Below are positions 1 through 6,210 of a stretch of DNA of 64,000 bases, piece after piece. The DNA is taken from contig JBGAIQ010000007.1 of assembly GCA_044225365.1 (NCBI GenBank), positions 1-64,000 of the forward strand, written 5' to 3'. The position numbers and the translations under genes are program-made. This DNA comes from Planctomycetota bacterium. GTDB lineage: Bacteria > Planctomycetota > B15-G4 > JADJEK01. The notes beneath the pieces were generated by a model, which was given only the letters and a program-made list of their open reading frames with translations, was not told where the DNA came from and searched no databases. How positions within the stretch are numbered: position 1 is the first letter of the stretch; every line of letters starts with the position of its first letter.

Positions 1-482
1 CCCCGCGCGTCCCCGAACACCGCGGCGATCTCGCGACGCGACGCCATCCGCGGCCACTCGATTGGGTGCGGGAGGGAGAGCAATCCATACATCGTGAGTC
101 CAGCGCGCAGCATGAGCGGGCCGACGCGATCCGTATCACGTAGAGCGAACAGGAACGGCTCCGGGCGGACGTGATCGGGCGCGATCCGCGCGAGGATCGC
201 CCGCTCGCGCAGCGCCTCGCGCACGAACGCGAACTGGTATTGCTCGAGGTAGCGCAGCCCGCCGTGGATCAACCGCGAAGACGCCGATGACGTCGCGTTC
301 GCGAAGTCGCCGCGCTCGATGAGAGCGACGGAAAGCCCGCGCAGTGCGAGATCCAGCGCAACGCCGCAGCCCGTGACGCCGCCGCCGATGACGAGGGCAT
401 CGAATGCGCCGCGCGAGAGCCGGTCGATCTCGACGTCACGATGAGATGTGCGGATCCCGGTCGTGGGTGAGCTCGAGTTCAA
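1..482 (-). CDS. glpD: FAD-dependent glycerol-3-phosphate dehydrogenase, N-terminal part (runs off window start)
   Basis: Manual minus-strand translation: FDALVIGGGVTGCGVALDLALRGLSVALIERGDFANATSSASSRLIHGGLRYLEQ, a classic GlpD N-terminus. The first in-frame start after the upstream stop is TTG at 482. Confidence 0.9.
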   Translation of the reverse strand, partial: MNSSSPTTGIRTSHRDVEIDRLSRGAFDALVIGGGVTGCGVALDLALRGLSVALIERGDFANATSSASSRLIHGGLRYLEQYQFAFVREALRERAILARIAPDHVRPEPFLFALRDTDRVGPLMLRAGLTMYGLLSLPHPIEWPRMASRREIAAVFGDAR

Positions 483-583
483 TACACACCGACGAGTAGG
501 GGTTCACGGGCTCGATCGGAGAAGGAACGGTCGGATCATAGGACATCGCGCCCCACAGTAGTTCGCAAGAGCGCGCACGGATC

Positions 584-600
584 CCTTCGTGTCCTTCGTG
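584..600. repeat. Short intergenic tandem repeat CCTTCGTG-T-CCTTCGTG (CACGAAGGACACGAAGG on minus strand)
   Basis: Two exact 8-mers with a 9-nt period, read directly. Confidence 0.5.
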
Positions 601-629
601 AGACGTCGTGATTCGGGGCCGCAGCCCCT

Positions 630-986
630 TCAAGTCGCGAGGGATCTCCACGCGTCTTCCGAGAAGCCGACGTAGAAGACGTCGCCCACGCGGATCGTGG
701 GGGCGCGGAGGTTTCCGGAATTGCCGAGCACCGAGTCCGCGAGCGTGGCCCAGTCGACCGGTTTCTTCGAGAGATCGATGTCCACGATCTTCTTGCCCTT
801 TGCGATCACGACGCGGCGCGCATCGCCGAAGACCCCTCGAATCGCCTCGGCAGGGAAACGAGTCTTCTTCGCGTCGACGAGGGTGGCGACCGGGACCGCA
901 TGCTTGCCGACGAACTCGTCGGCGCGTTCACAGCCCGTTCAGTTCTTGCGGTGGTAGTACCAGTCGATCGTTGGGCGCTTGCTCAT
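630..986 (-). CDS. ArsC/Spx-family thioredoxin-fold protein, probable selenoprotein (Sec at codon 16, TGA 941-939)
   Basis: GAGGAG RBS, then ATG 986: MSKRPTIDWYYHRKN-TGA-TGCERADEFVGKHAVPVATLVDAKKTRF...LGNSGNLRAPTIRVGDVFYVGFSEDAW..*. The frame stays open for about 100 codons after the TGA, which occupies the first Cys position of CxxC. The GNLRAPT...VGF C-terminal motif is ArsC/Spx-like. Confidence 0.85.
906..923 (-). promoter_or_regulatory. Putative bacterial SECIS hairpin
   Basis: mRNA GCCGACG-AGUU-CGUCGGC: perfect 7-bp stem starting 15 nt after the UGA, with G as second nucleotide of the apical loop followed by U. Confidence 0.7.
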
Positions 987-1065
987 CTCGGGCTCCTCGC
1001 ATTGGATTCGTCGCGAACCGCCGGAGCATAGCAGCCCGCTTCCGTGCTCGCTCAGGATCGATCCT

Positions 1066-1896
1066 CTACAGTTGGATGTCGGGGAGCGTTCGCGTGGTGT
1101 GGACTTCGGGGCCGTCGAAGCCCACGAATGCCGTCGGATGATGCTGGGTCGGCCAGACCTCGAGCGCCTGGCCGCGAGCCCGAGAAGCCTGCTCGATGCG
1201 CAGCGATCCCGTTTCGTCCGTCACGAAGGTCGGAATCGACTCGAGCGCGACTCCCAACGTGCAGTACCTGCTTCGCGCGATCCAAGCGGGATCGAGCACG
1301 TCGACGCGCACGCGAGGCAAGGGCTCGTTCGTCACGGCATCGACGATCCGCACCACGAGCGTCCCGCGGATCGATGCTGCATTGGCGAGATCGCATACGA
1401 TCGTGAGCGGAGTCGAATCCCGGGCGACGGCAAGCGGAGTGGAGCCCAGCACGACGTCGTCGTCCGCGAGCAGTGCGATGTACCACGATCGATGGGGATC
1501 CCAGACGGAGAGATCGTAAGACGCCGAGTCCTCGGCTTTGGCGCGTGCGGACCCGCGCACCGATCGCAGGAGACAGAACTCCTCGGGATCGTCCCCGACG
1601 ACCTCTCGCGGGGGCGTCTTCAGGATCGTGACGCGTGCTTGCACTCGAAGCGGTTCCGGTCGGGGCGGCGGCGCGGAACTCGGGTCGGAGGCGACCGACG
1701 TGAGCGCGACGGGACACCCGTCCGGGGTCACGATGCGCAGAGGGATCGTCTGCGCCTTCTCGATGGCGTAGCGTTCGAGCAGCGCCAAACGCGGAGCGTC
1801 GTGAGGGCGGATCTCACGCTCGCTCGACGTCACGCAGCCGACGCTCGTCCCGAGCAGCAACAGGAGGATGCCGTCCGGGCGCAGGAGGAACCTCAT
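1066..1896 (-). CDS. Hypothetical lipoprotein, possible carboxypeptidase-regulatory-like beta-sandwich at C-terminus
   Basis: ATG 1896 overlaps the upstream TGA (ATGA). MRFLLRPDGILLLLLGTSVGC is a signal/lipobox; VRIVDAVTNEPLPRVRV..TDETG motif. Confidence 0.6.
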   Translation of the reverse strand: MRFLLRPDGILLLLLGTSVGCVTSSEREIRPHDAPRLALLERYAIEKAQTIPLRIVTPDGCPVALTSVASDPSSAPPPRPEPLRVQARVTILKTPPREVVGDDPEEFCLLRSVRGSARAKAEDSASYDLSVWDPHRSWYIALLADDDVVLGSTPLAVARDSTPLTIVCDLANAASIRGTLVVRIVDAVTNEPLPRVRVDVLDPAWIARSRYCTLGVALESIPTFVTDETGSLRIEQASRARGQALEVWPTQHHPTAFVGFDGPEVHTTRTLPDIQL

Positions 1897-3230
1897 TCGA
1901 AGGGGATTCCGATGACGACGCGCGAAGGGAAGAAGGACTCGCCCGCCGGTAGTTCGCACTCGATTCGGAACGGACACGTCGGATCGAAAGCGGAAGGCAG
2001 GTCGCCGCTGGAGTCCTTCGGAAGGATGCGCAGTTCCGACCCGTCGGCTCGACGTTGAACCAAAGTGTACTCCGTAGGTCCCTGCCACAGCACCCGGATC
2101 GCCGACGGATCGCGGGGTTTTCGACCGCCGTCGGTCCACCGCTCCGCCTTCGAGAGCCACATGGGCGGCGGCTCCTTCGGATCCGCGGCGGCAGACCTCG
2201 GATGGCTGCGCAGGCCGTATTCGACGACGCTGCGGGACAGGACATTCGCGTCGATCTCGAGGATCATCCTCTTCGGATGCGCCAGCACGACGCGGAGCTG
2301 ATCGCCGCCCTCCACATCGTGGCCCATGCATTCGATCGGATACGGATCTCCCCCTTCGAACGTCGGTACGACATCGACGTGCCGTCTCCGTTCGTCGAGC
2401 AGGAGGCGAAGATCGAAGTCGGGACCGTCGGTGACCGAGTTCAGGAAGTCCACGATCCCGAGGAGGTACGCCGTGATGGCGGTGCGCTGATCCTCGACGT
2501 AGACGAACTCGGGATCGGCGACGTGGAGTCTCATGCCGCGATCCTCGAGGACTCTTAGCTCTCGATCGTCGAGTGCCTCGGAGGGCGCGATGTTCGGCAC
2601 GGTGTACGGCGCCGGCCTGCTGACGAGGGAGAACGGCTCCATGTCCCGCAGCTCGAAGCCGAGCCCACGAGTACGATCGACTCCGTCGAGTAGTGCTTCG
2701 ACCTTCTCGGAGCCCAGACGAACCTGCATCGGGAGAGTCACGTCGATGCCGTAGGCCTCGAAGATCCTGCGTGCGTACTGACGCGCGAGCCACACGTCGA
2801 AGATGCCGCTGTCCGCGTTGCCGAAGTGGATCGGAATCGACTCGACGAATCGCGGCGAGCGACCGATTCGATCTCGACCCTCGGCGCGCCAGACTCGCGC
2901 GATGTCCCGATTGCATCCGCTCGGGACCTTGGACTCGAGTTGCTCCAGGATCCCTAGCACGCGGGGAACGACGTCCTGCGGGGCCATCGGCCGCTGCGGA
3001 TCGATCTGGGGCATGCGATCCCCCGTCGTGCGGGACGCGTCGTTGTCGTCACTGCACGCGGCGTTCGCGAGCGCAATGGCGGCCGCTGCCATGGCGAGGT
3101 TCAGCAGGCGCGCGTCCTGACGTGCGGCGACGAGCGCACGAAACTCGTCGGGATCGAGGCGAGCGGGGTAGGCCGGCCGATACGTCGACGTGATCGGGGC
3201 GAGAGGTCGGAACTTCGTTCGCGGCGTCAT
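1893..3230 (-). CDS. Hypothetical protein with N-terminal leader and lipobox-like signal
   Basis: 445-aa ORF directly downstream of gcvP. YRPAYP leader, then LLNLAMAAAAIALANAAC; translationally coupled to the next gene. Confidence 0.7.
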   Translation of the reverse strand: MTPRTKFRPLAPITSTYRPAYPARLDPDEFRALVAARQDARLLNLAMAAAAIALANAACSDDNDASRTTGDRMPQIDPQRPMAPQDVVPRVLGILEQLESKVPSGCNRDIARVWRAEGRDRIGRSPRFVESIPIHFGNADSGIFDVWLARQYARRIFEAYGIDVTLPMQVRLGSEKVEALLDGVDRTRGLGFELRDMEPFSLVSRPAPYTVPNIAPSEALDDRELRVLEDRGMRLHVADPEFVYVEDQRTAITAYLLGIVDFLNSVTDGPDFDLRLLLDERRRHVDVVPTFEGGDPYPIECMGHDVEGGDQLRVVLAHPKRMILEIDANVLSRSVVEYGLRSHPRSAAADPKEPPPMWLSKAERWTDGGRKPRDPSAIRVLWQGPTEYTLVQRRADGSELRILPKDSSGDLPSAFDPTCPFRIECELPAGESFFPSRVVIGIPFE

Positions 3231-3279
3231 ACCGCCGCGAACGGAAGAGGCGGCCGTTGGTTCGGGTGGAAGAATCGTT

Positions 3280-3329
3280 GCCGGGCTGGAGCCCGGCGGT
3301 CCGTACGCCGGGCTAGAGCCCGGCGGTCC
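3280..3329 (-). repeat. Two tandem copies of a 23-nt REP-like palindrome (GGACCGCCGGGCTCYAGCCCGGC on minus strand)
   Basis: 3280-3302 and 3307-3329 differ at one base, and each contains the GCCGGGCT/AGCCCGGC stem. The second copy supplies the gcvP stop codon. Confidence 0.8.
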
Positions 3330-6210
3330 CAGTGGCTTCGATCATCTCGGGCGACCAGGTGCAGCACATGTTGCGATCGCCGTAGACGTTGTCGATGCGG
3401 GAGACGTAGGGCCAGAACTTGTGCTCGCGCGTCCAGGGCGCGGGGAAGGCCGCGATCTCGCGACCGTACTTGCGCGACCACGAGTCGGAGACCACGACAG
3501 CGGCCGTGTGCGGCGCGTTGGCGAGCGGGTTGTCCTTGGCGTCCCATTCGCCGCTCTGCACCTTGTCGATCTCCTTCTTGATCGCGATGAGCGCGTCGCA
3601 GAAGCGATCGAGTTCGGCCTTCGACTCGGATTCGGTCGGCTCGATCATCAGCGTTCCCGGAACTGGGAAGGACATCGTCGGCGCGTGGAATCCGTAGTCC
3701 ATGAGTCGCTTCGCCACGTCGTCGATCGACACGTGCGACTGCGCGGAGATGTCGCGATAGTCGATGATGCACTCGTGTGCGATCCGGCCGTGCGAGCCCT
3801 TGTAGAGCACAGGGACGTGAGGGTCGATCCGGCTCGCGATGTAGTTGGCGTTGAGGATCGCGGTCTTCGTGGCGAGCGCGAGGCCGTCGGCTCCCATCAT
3901 CGCAATGTACGCGTACGGGATCGGGAGGATGCCCGGGCTGCCGAACGGGGCCGCGGAGACCGCGCCCGTGCCCTTCTCGCCGCCGCACTCGACGACGGGG
4001 TGCTTCGGCAGATAGGGCGCGAGGTGCGACGCGACGCAGATCGGTCCCATGCCGGGCCCGCCGCCGCCATGCGGGATGCAGAACGTCTTGTGCAGGTTGA
4101 GGTGACAGACGTCGCCGCCGATGTCGCCCGGTCGGCAGAGCCCGACCATCGCGTTCATGTTCGCGCCGTCGAGGTAGACCTGGCCGCCGTGCTGGTGGAC
4201 GATCTTGCAGATCTCTTGGATCGATTCCTCGAACACGCCGTGCGTCGACGGATACGTGACCATGATCGCCGAGAGGTTCGCGGAGTGCTCCGCGGCCTTC
4301 TTGCGCAGATCCGCGACGTCGATGTTGCCGTTCTTGTCGCAATCGACCGCGAAGATGCGCATGCCCGCGAGCGCCGCCGACGCGGGATTCGTGCCGTGCG
4401 CGGAGGTAGGGATGAGGCAGACGTCGCGATGCGCGTCGCCGCGCGCGATGTGATAGGCGCGGATCACGAGGAGCCCGGCGTACTCGCCCTGGCTTCCGGC
4501 GTTCGGCTGCATCGAGCAGGCGGCGAACCCCGTGATGTTGCAGAGCCACCCCTCGAGGCGGCGGATCATCTCGCGATAGCCTGCGACCTGCGCAGTCGGC
4601 GCGAACGGATGGATCTGGGAGAAGCCCGGGAAGCTCACCGGCACCATCTCCGCTGTTGCGTTCAGCTTCATCGTGCACGAGCCGAGCGAGATCATCGACG
4701 TGGTCAGCGAGAGATCGCGGCTCTCGAGTCGCTTGATGTAGCGGAGGAGTTCGTGCTCGGTGTGATGGCTCGCGAAGACGGGCTGCTGCATGTACGCCGT
4801 CGTGCGTGCGAGCGCACCGAAGGCGACTTTCTCCCCCGCGGCGACGGTCGACGGCGAGAACGCGGCGCGCTCCCCGCCGAAGCACTCGAACAGGTCCTGG
4901 AGGTCCGACGGCTCGACCGTCTCGTCGAGGGCGATCGCGAGATCGCCACCGTCGAGCGTGCGCAGATTGATGCGCTTGCTCTCGGCGCGCTTCCTCACCT
5001 CGGCGGCCGGCACCTTCGCGGACGGCTTCACGCGCAATGTGTCGAAATACGAACCGTGGACGATCGTGCACCCGATCTTCGCGAGCGCGGCGGCGAGGGC
5101 CTTCGCTCCGAGATGGACCTTCGTCGCGATGCGCTTCAGTCCTTCCGGGCCGTGGTAGACCGCGTACATCGACGCGGTGACGGCGAGCAGGACCTGCGCG
5201 GTGCAGATGTTGCTCGTCGCGCGATCGCGTCGAATGTGCTGCTCACGCGTCTGCAGCGCGAGGCGAAGCGCGGGGCGTCCGGTCGCGTCGATCGAGACGC
5301 CGACGATGCGGCCCGGCATCTTGCGTTGATGATCTTCCTTGCACGCCATGAACGCCGCGTGCGGCCCGCCGTAGAACAGCGGGACTCCGAAGCGCTGGCT
5401 GTTGCCGACGACGACGTCGGCGCCCATCTCGCCCGGCGGCTTCAGCAGCGTGAGGGCGAGGAGGTCGGACGCGACGACCGCGAGGCTGCCGTTCTGGTGT
5501 GCACGATCGATGAACGCCTGCACGTCCTCGACGCAGCCGTCCGTCGCGGGGTACTGCACGATGCCGCCAAAGGTCTTCGCGTCGAACTGGAACGTCTTCC
5601 AGTTCCCGACGACGACCGACAGACCGAGCGGTTCGGCGCGGGTGCGGATCACGTCGATCGTCTGCGGATGACAATGATCGGCCACGAAGAACGTATTGGC
5701 GTCCTTCTTCTTTTCGAGCACGCGGCGCGCGAGCGTCATCGCCTCTGCGGCGGCGGTGGCTTCATCGAGCATCGAGGCGTTCGCCGCCGGCATGCCGGTG
5801 AGCTCGCAGACCATGGTCTGGAAGTTGAGCAGCGCCTGCATGCGACCCTGGGAGATCTCGGCCTGGTAGGGCGTGTATTGCGTGTACCAACCGGCGTTCT
5901 CGAGGATCTGGCGCTGGACGACGGGCGGCGTCACCGTTCCCGAGTAGCCCATTCCGAGGTAGCTGCGGAAGATCTGATTCTTCGCCGCGAGATCGGAGAG
6001 ATCGGCGAGGACTTCGCGCTCCGTGCGCGCGGGCGGCAGGTCCAACTTCCCTTGCATCCGGATGGCGCCGGGGATCGTCTGCTCGATGAGCTGATCGATG
6101 GAGTTCGCCTTCACGGAAGCGAGCATCGCCGTGGTGTCGGCATCGCTCTTTCCGAGGTGGCGGTTCTGGAAGACGTCGTGCGGGCTGAGCGGGTCGTGAC
6201 CTGCGGCCAT
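3313..6210 (-). CDS. gcvP: Glycine dehydrogenase (decarboxylating), single-chain glycine cleavage P protein
   Basis: [31 protein letters not shown] and the PLP-lysine motif [18 protein letters not shown]. Start trimmed to MAAGHDPL. Confidence 0.97.

Follow-up and report, generated by a model that had tools for sequence, protein, structure and literature searches.

An ArsC-family (seleno)protein gene with an in-frame TGA, overlooked in the ORF list of a Planctomycetota contig

Delivery of Sec-tRNA(Sec) to UGA by SelB through a hairpin is an established mechanism (PMC9312934), and the tables of prokaryotic selenoproteins contain an 'Arsenate reductase-like protein, UxxC' (PMC13188914, PMC9312934), which corresponds to the NCBIfam family NF041106, 'ArsC family (seleno)protein' (ArsC_rel_Se_1). 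The same family is probably the 'Arsenate reductase 2, cd03032, UxxC' of PMC2398784, and 'ArsC-like' selenoproteins appear in PMC1794560. According to a 2026 review these families are largely uncharacterised (PMC13188914), and our literature searches, with subscription journals outside their coverage, yielded no experimental or functional study of the NF041106 family. Sec machinery and candidate selenoproteins have been reported for planctomycetes (PMC4807772), with no ArsC-like protein listed by name in the S9 table of that study, while across bacteria the Sec pathway is recorded for 16,621 of 64,762 species (26%) in BSepDB (PMC13326102). Several better described proteins share the fold. The arsenate reductase of the R773 type has the catalytic motif HX3CX3R and the triad Arg60/Arg94/Arg107, and the ArsC-related proteins of the YffB/YusI type have been proposed to be thiol reductases (PMC3169414). 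In the regulator Spx, the residues contacting DNA in the activation complex are T11, S12, K15, R60, K62, R91 and Y105-D108 (PMC8501982). Both Spx and YffB are described with helices at the insertion into the fold (PMC8501982, PMC2801614, PMC3169414).

The window analysed here, 64,000 nucleotides of a Planctomycetota contig, contains on its minus strand a reading frame which starts with ATG at 986-984 and runs through 15 codons, an in-frame TGA as codon 16 and 102 more codons to a terminal TGA, encoding 118 residues if read through (Table 1). All of these elements, together with a ribosome-binding site, had been described in the original prediction and were seen directly in the sequence. The accompanying claim that the gene had been missed also holds, as the standard ORF list shows merely a 59-aa tail (630-809). 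The stretch after the in-frame stop had been given as TGC, which is right for the peptide T-G-C but not for the codon, Cys19 being encoded by TGT. The GC3 of the gene (0.84) is similar to that of its neighbours, no paralogue was found in its own genome, where it is single copy, and a scan of positions 1-3500 yielded neither promoter nor terminator. Contigs from the runs X1 and X2, which stem from a single sample that may be the source of the assembly, cross the TGA codon with 0 differences, and a contig from an independent study (X4; 883-1140) crosses it with 13 differences, 11 of them listed and none of these 11 at 939-941. By the differences listed, none of these contigs shows TGC or TGT at codon 16, the error that had been considered beforehand, and an assembly error at this codon is unlikely. 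Since the terminal TGA of the gene is a real stop, a global UGA=Trp code does not apply.

Table 1. Coordinates of the gene, its signals, its neighbours and further in-frame TGA motifs (window positions, or host contig:position with strand)
Feature	Position	Strand	Evidence and remarks
Predicted ArsC-family selenoprotein gene, NF041106	630..986	-	frame, family profile, AF2 model
Shine-Dalgarno-like GAGGAG	993..998	-	sequence; 6 nt upstream of ATG
In-frame TGA, codon 16, predicted Sec reading	939..941	-	sequence; TGA/Cys exchange in 63 extracted genes; selB co-occurrence
Cys19 codon TGT, predicted resolving Cys of UxxC	930..932	-	sequence; Cys in 63/63 aligned genes
Bacterial SECIS-like hairpin	906..923	-	7-bp stem, AGUU loop; fold; bSECIS constraints; covariation; Sec/Cys contrast
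True stop, also TGA	630..632	-	frame; orthologues terminate within few codons, with TGA, TAG or TAA
glpD-type FAD-dependent glycerol-3-phosphate dehydrogenase, 5' part, cut by contig end	1..482	-	best match NF008899, E 6e-39; fragment scoring under the cut-off
Two hypothetical ORFs between gcvP and the NF041106 gene	1066-1890, 1893-3230	-	no Pfam/NCBIfam match
gcvP, glycine cleavage P protein	3313..6207	-	immediately precedes the orthologue in G001, G004 and G009; two hypothetical ORFs between here
In-frame TGA redox motifs in the host genome, including SelD	C75:51058, C30:164880, C82:82583, C82:81226, C85:67551, C14:47654, C90:87485	+, +, -, -, +, +, +	rough scan

The read-through protein matches NF041106 with 113.9 bits (cut-off 85, E 5e-33), residues 7-112 covering positions 1-106 of the 107 in the model, and carries the motif U16-T-G-C19 as well as a second landmark, L93-R94-A95-P96. 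The Pfam ArsC match stays sub-threshold (19.4 bits vs. a cut-off of 24, E 0.0013), the Spx model NF002459 reaches only 12.7 bits against a cut-off of 123, and TIGR01617 is not among the matches at E <= 0.1. The protein is 29-57% identical to 62 aligned relatives. In the protein database, the nearest homologues that were found show 36-59% identity, and most of their records are cut short following the TGA. A CxxC is missing from 96 of the 150 best database representatives, 38 of which start two residues ahead of the resolving Cys. The finding mainly corrects annotation, as gene callers drop the active site. Some distant or unusual members were noted along the way. The jakobid eukaryote Andalucia godoyi has a Cys-form homologue just below the cut-off (78 bits), and a second, similar Cys-form homologue scores 97.7 bits; both records (P0205 and P0138) carry a basic N-terminal extension that may resemble a nuclear-localisation signal. 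The Planctomycetota member P0074 has an N-terminal tail of about 55 aa which is rich in Lys, Ala and Pro and histone-like.

A search of the host genome (G000; 6.53 Mb, 94% complete) for the Sec machinery, proposed along with the original prediction, detected all four components: a tRNA-Sec with TCA anticodon (68.5 bits vs. a gathering score of 47), selA (486.6 bits), selB (346.5 bits) and selD (361.5 bits), the three proteins each above cut-off. selA and selD are adjacent, selB lies on the same contig as the window, and selD carries one in-frame TGA of its own. A rough scan for further in-frame TGA redoxins yielded five thioredoxin-like W/Y-U-G-P-C motifs and one peroxiredoxin-like T-P-G-U motif, so that besides SelD at least six U-motif redoxins, exported or cytoplasmic, are encoded in this genome. 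No formate dehydrogenase passed the rough in-frame-TGA filter of the host genome.

NF041106 matches above cut-off were obtained in 31 of 41 relatives and, in a phylum sample of 401 Planctomycetota genomes of at least 85% completeness, in 99. The assignment of the sample to Planctomycetota follows from a genome of the same phylum in which a protein identical to P0010 of Polystyrenella longa is encoded. The family is thus present in about a quarter of the sampled genomes, mostly in the Sec form: the TGA form was found in 85 and the Cys form in 16 of them, with both in two and the Cys form alone in 14. In the family to which the window belongs, the matches have TGA in 10 of 10 cases. selB was above cut-off in 288 of the 401 genomes (72%; matched at E <= 1e-62 in 289). 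Compared with the 26% of BSepDB, Sec use in Planctomycetota looks unusually common, on the basis of differing methods and a sample drawn evenly from a larger group. As many as 83 of the 85 TGA-form genomes possess selB and only 2 of the 112 selB-negative genomes have the TGA form, counts whose significance is overstated by the fact that the sampled genomes are kin and not independent. One of these exceptions is G003, whose assembly is fragmented and whose selA is split. Among the 14 Cys-only genomes, 11 are without selB and 3 keep it.

For a comparison at the level of the gene, 65 loci were fetched and 63 genes extracted, 39 with TGA and 24 with TGC/TGT at the position in question; L032 and L033, both without internal stop, are absent from this set, which consists of the best 30 loci per genome search and is not a random sample. 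Homologues with a residue other than Cys at column 16 would, according to the original prediction, have pointed to a pseudogene or an artefact; in all 63 genes, that of the window included, the column contains TGA or Cys and no other residue. The best tree requires 7 Sec/Cys changes, at least 5 of them forced by well-supported branches, as judged from few columns and with the root untested. G013, G030 and G040 have one Cys copy and one Sec copy each, and G003 has two Sec copies. In all 39 Sec genes the TGA is followed by an A, and in 37 of them the next residue is T; the Cys genes vary at this residue. A tblastn search of a Cys orthologue against the PLSDB plasmids yielded no match.

Downstream of the TGA, the hairpin at 923-906 was confirmed as originally described, with a perfect 7-bp stem beginning 15 nt after the TGA and an AGUU loop beginning 22 nt after it, at -12.0 kcal/mol. 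Published bSECIS constraints ask for a loop of 3-9 nt, a stem of 4-16 bp, a G in the first two loop positions, a distance of 16-37 nt from the UGA and an MFE <= -7.5 (PMC13188914). Scored with our own script and not with bSECISearch itself, the hairpin lies within all of these limits, with a 4-nt loop whose second base is G, a 7-bp stem, a distance of 22 nt and -12.0 kcal/mol. The folding z-score is -1.41 for 880-945 and -2.19 for 888-941, and a GC3-weighted control gives -2.7. With synonymous codons drawn according to the codon usage of the genome, however, 7 of 7 pairs recur in 15% of 5000 draws, and a loose SECIS pattern fits 55,528 of the 134,983 TGA triplets (41%) in this genome of 65% GC. 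The hairpin was therefore rejected as stand-alone proof, being largely dictated by the peptide A-D-E-F-V-G (p = 0.15). By itself it is weak evidence for Sec, and the weight rests on the comparison with orthologues.

In this comparison, with identical hairpin regions (L051, L057) entered once, the strict bSECIS model is matched by 22 of 38 distinct Sec genes and by none of the 23 Cys genes; when the comparison is confined to the order, at similar GC3, the numbers are 11 of 20 and 0 of 7. The pairing register of the window is paired in 71.8% of cells across orthologues, 24 cells are changed on both sides (0 of 500 shuffles were as high), and it beats every slid register on both cells paired and covariation score. 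Still, the hairpin is not universal, as 16 of 38 Sec genes fail the strict model, and RNAalifold over the 39 Sec genes produced no consensus structure because a sizeable group of them folds in another register or without the loop G. The Sec genes L024, L027-L031, L034, L042, L046, L070-L072 and L078 have stable or moderate hairpins whose register differs, and in several of them the loop does not start with a G; these possibly represent a non-canonical SECIS class.

In G001, G004 and G009 an ABC-F gene and gcvP are followed 9-13 nt on by the NF041106 gene, and the same block occurs in the window, with two hypothetical ORFs inserted which are absent from the relatives' loci. Contig C64 carries a paralogue of the longer one (35% identity), and the shorter is joined to an upstream frame in the ORF list as a 616-aa ORF. 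The neighbours in other lineages are unrelated (rrf2-iscS, valS, rpsB, rhomboid protease, MATE transporters), and an arsenic-resistance Pfam was found in 0 of 48 ORFs scanned (selected neighbours and window ORFs), so that the context yields no pathway. In family f3 (L023-L030, L034-L036) the gene is located near the rrf2-iscS pair, with a convergent molybdopterin-oxidoreductase-like gene between. glpD was considered as a functional partner and rejected, given that the fragment matched only its own locus and G001 among 73 loci, mostly with 1.5 kb flanks. In G001 glpD starts about 0.7 kb downstream of the gene, and in G004 and G009 it is absent within the 12-15 kb contigs fetched. Elsewhere in the host genome, several long ORFs besides RpoA with one or two RNA polymerase alpha-CTD-like domains were observed on contigs C30, C16 and C95.

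The AF2 model of the window protein (C replacing U, one spurious terminal residue) has a mean pLDDT of 92.5, and that of a natural Cys orthologue 95.2. Both predict a thioredoxin core with an insertion in which a beta-hairpin (58-63/66-71, turning at the invariant G64) lies between two helices. In VIA comparisons the models reach Z 7-8.7 against Spx, YffB, NrdH and glutaredoxins. YffB (1rw1) is the best fold match of the wide search (Z 8.7, rmsd 2.7, 86 aligned), and Spx occupies Foldseek ranks 1-6 (TM 0.53; VIA Z 8.5, rmsd 2.9, 88 aligned). A profile search of solved proteins placed Spx regulators nearest (E 1.8e-10), followed by 2m46 and YffB. No solved structure sharing the predicted beta-hairpin insertion stood out in the fold searches, a result that does not speak for a new fold. 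The residues W9, R13, U/C16, C19, G64, G88, G91, L93, R94, P96, G101 and G107 are the same in all 63 genes, and a conserved face carries the basic residues R13, R/K21, K41, K/R63-G64-K/R65 (on the predicted beta-hairpin) and R94. The UxxC motif aligns to C10/C13 of Spx, the equivalents of the Spx G52 region (positions 52-56) are variable, and RAP stands in place of RPI.

Taken as a whole, the locus is almost certainly a translated selenoprotein gene, in which the hairpin would be bound by SelB-Sec-tRNA(Sec) and the UGA decoded as Sec to give a 118-aa cytoplasmic NF041106 protein; we infer Sec incorporation, whereas the analysis shows the reading frame, the family, the machinery, the exchange between Sec and Cys, the predicted fold and the conservation of residues. 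A pseudogene, a sequencing error or readthrough with Trp or Cys has hardly any probability left: the stop codon itself is the only point in favour of an artefact, the W at column 16 of representative P0146 most likely being a TGA translated under another code, and against it stand the recurrence of the TGA at this codon, in intact frames, across 85 genomes from many families, its co-occurrence with selB, the agreement of the contigs and the terminal stop. It is improbable that the protein is a genuine arsenate reductase like R773 ArsC of E. coli, with Sec replacing Cys12. The sub-threshold Pfam match, H12 four residues ahead of the nucleophile (54 of 63 genes), a K/R at the Arg60 equivalent (K63) and the lack of another PF03960 protein in the host genome would fit such an enzyme. 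The motif here is HX3UX3E, though, the motif Arg being found in 1 of 24 Cys genes and ranking below the top four residues at this position in the 39 Sec genes. With the Arg60 and Arg94 positions mapped through the Spx HMM alignment (ArsC Arg94 being presumably equivalent to Spx R92), the residue preceding the Pro, Ala95 here, is A, S or T in 63 of 63, so that the Arg94 position is not occupied by Arg. Since both the ArsC motif and the Arg triad are incomplete, the protein does not appear to be an arsenate reductase. Further points against are the dithiol type of the motif, the failure to find glutathione synthesis genes in the host, the lack of ars neighbours among the ORFs scanned, and the presence of three host proteins with the LMW-PTP fold, the other ArsC type. 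Equally little can be said for an accessory redoxin of glycine cleavage or a related lipoyl/flavin pathway, for example one in electron exchange with GcvH through its dihydrolipoyl arm. The close spacing to gcvP in the three relatives, in the window widened by the two ORFs, speaks for it, and the basic surface would be well matched to a carrier protein of acidic character. But the linkage is confined to 3 of 4 gene-bearing genera of one family, the genus of the window included, and is absent from other lineages within the fetched flanks (+/-1.5 kb for most loci), gcvH lies on another contig, and the block also holds the unrelated ABC-F gene, which makes it look like inherited gene order.

With classical arsenate reduction unlikely, a general redoxin and an Spx-like switch are the two options left. 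As a switch, U16-x-x-C19 would be oxidised to a selenenylsulfide and thereby trigger binding of RNA polymerase and/or promoter DNA, making the protein a selenium-tuned stress regulator and not an enzyme, a live alternative that we regard as clearly less likely than the redoxin. Besides the best sequence and fold matches being Spx, it draws on the HMM alignment of the Spx residues contacting DNA: T11, S12 and K15 align to T17, G18 (S/T in most) and R21 (K/R in 63/63), and R60, K62, R91 and Y105-D108 to K63 (K/R in 57/63), K65 (K/R in 58/63), R94 (63/63) and F108-D111. The median net charge of +5 and the single copy outside any operon in the host genome are also in line with it. On the other hand, conservation extends neither to G52, which defines Spx, nor to the alpha-CTD face. 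The RPI motif has A/S/T in place of R92, a C-terminal sigma-contacting helix is missing, both models have a beta-hairpin where Spx has helices 3-4 (TM 0.53), and the score against the Spx model is far below cut-off. Moreover, several of the residues in common may simply be features of the ArsC/Spx/YffB fold at large. A complex prediction of the Cys orthologue from G028 with its own RNA polymerase alpha-CTD gave no answer (score 0.00) and counts neither way. It appears doubtful that NF041106 as a family consists of Sec-based Spx-like switches which bind nucleic acid or RNA polymerase via a basic surface rebuilt on the beta-hairpin; if true, it would be a transcription regulator with Sec as sensor, in a phylum in which Sec use looks far above the bacterial average.

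For the stand-alone, glutaredoxin/NrdH-like cytoplasmic selenol/thiol-disulfide redoxin, we see about an even chance; catalysis, electron donor and substrate are what we infer for it. After Sec has been inserted at UGA 941-939 via SelB-Sec-tRNA(Sec) on the hairpin, the Sec16 selenolate would sit at the start of helix 1, opposite Pro96 at the cis-Pro position of the thioredoxin fold, and would attack a disulfide or another oxidised sulfur or selenium centre on the substrate. Cys19 would then resolve the mixed bond, leaving a Se-S bridge which would be re-reduced by the thioredoxin reductase system and not by glutathione. trxB is present in the host genome, and neither gshA nor gshB was found in this 94% complete assembly. 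The conserved basic face hints at a partner that is acidic or carries phosphate. The neighbours, varying between lineages and without an ars-operon Pfam among the ORFs scanned, are as expected of a housekeeping redoxin. What counts against the redoxin is that the solved proteins nearest in sequence are Spx regulators and not enzymes. The order also contains natural Cys orthologues, whose expression does not require the Sec machinery.

The core of the original prediction, a Sec-containing protein of the ArsC/Spx fold in a Sec-decoding planctomycete, is supported by the family match, the machinery and the orthologues. Its claim of novelty survives in one part, the unknown function. The lineage is not new, because NCBI naming already applies 'ArsC family (seleno)protein' to Planctomycetota proteins and Sec decoding in planctomycetes has been published (PMC4807772), nor is the context upstream of glpD, which is local synteny found here and in G001 only.

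Among the known systems, R773-type ArsC (TIGR00014; PDB 1sk0), of which a separate UxxS selenoprotein form exists, resembles the window protein in fold (VIA Z 6.0, rmsd 3.1, 89 aligned) and in the His four residues before the nucleophile. It differs in that the window protein has a second Cys, does not conserve the Arg of HX3CX3R or Arg94, has no ars neighbours in view and belongs to a host without gshA/gshB matches. The YffB/YusI-like proteins (PDB 1rw1, 2kok, 2m46) share size, fold and an incomplete Arg triad, whereas YffB has one Cys, binds glutathione and has an all-helical bundle as insertion. Spx/MgsR of Bacillota (PDB 1z3e, 3gfk, 7f75) likewise combine a thioredoxin core and an inserted subdomain with a CxxC-type centre, and the window protein has equivalents of the Spx DNA-backbone contacts K15, R60, K62 and R91 and of the G-[YF]-N-E-[DE] stretch. 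Unlike them, it lacks the conserved G52, the alpha-CTD face and the C-terminal helix 7, has Ala for R92, is predicted to form a beta-hairpin in place of helices 3-4 and would use Sec as nucleophile. With NF041106 itself, the agreement extends over the whole model, with UxxC at the same place and interchanging Sec and Cys forms, and nothing material differs.
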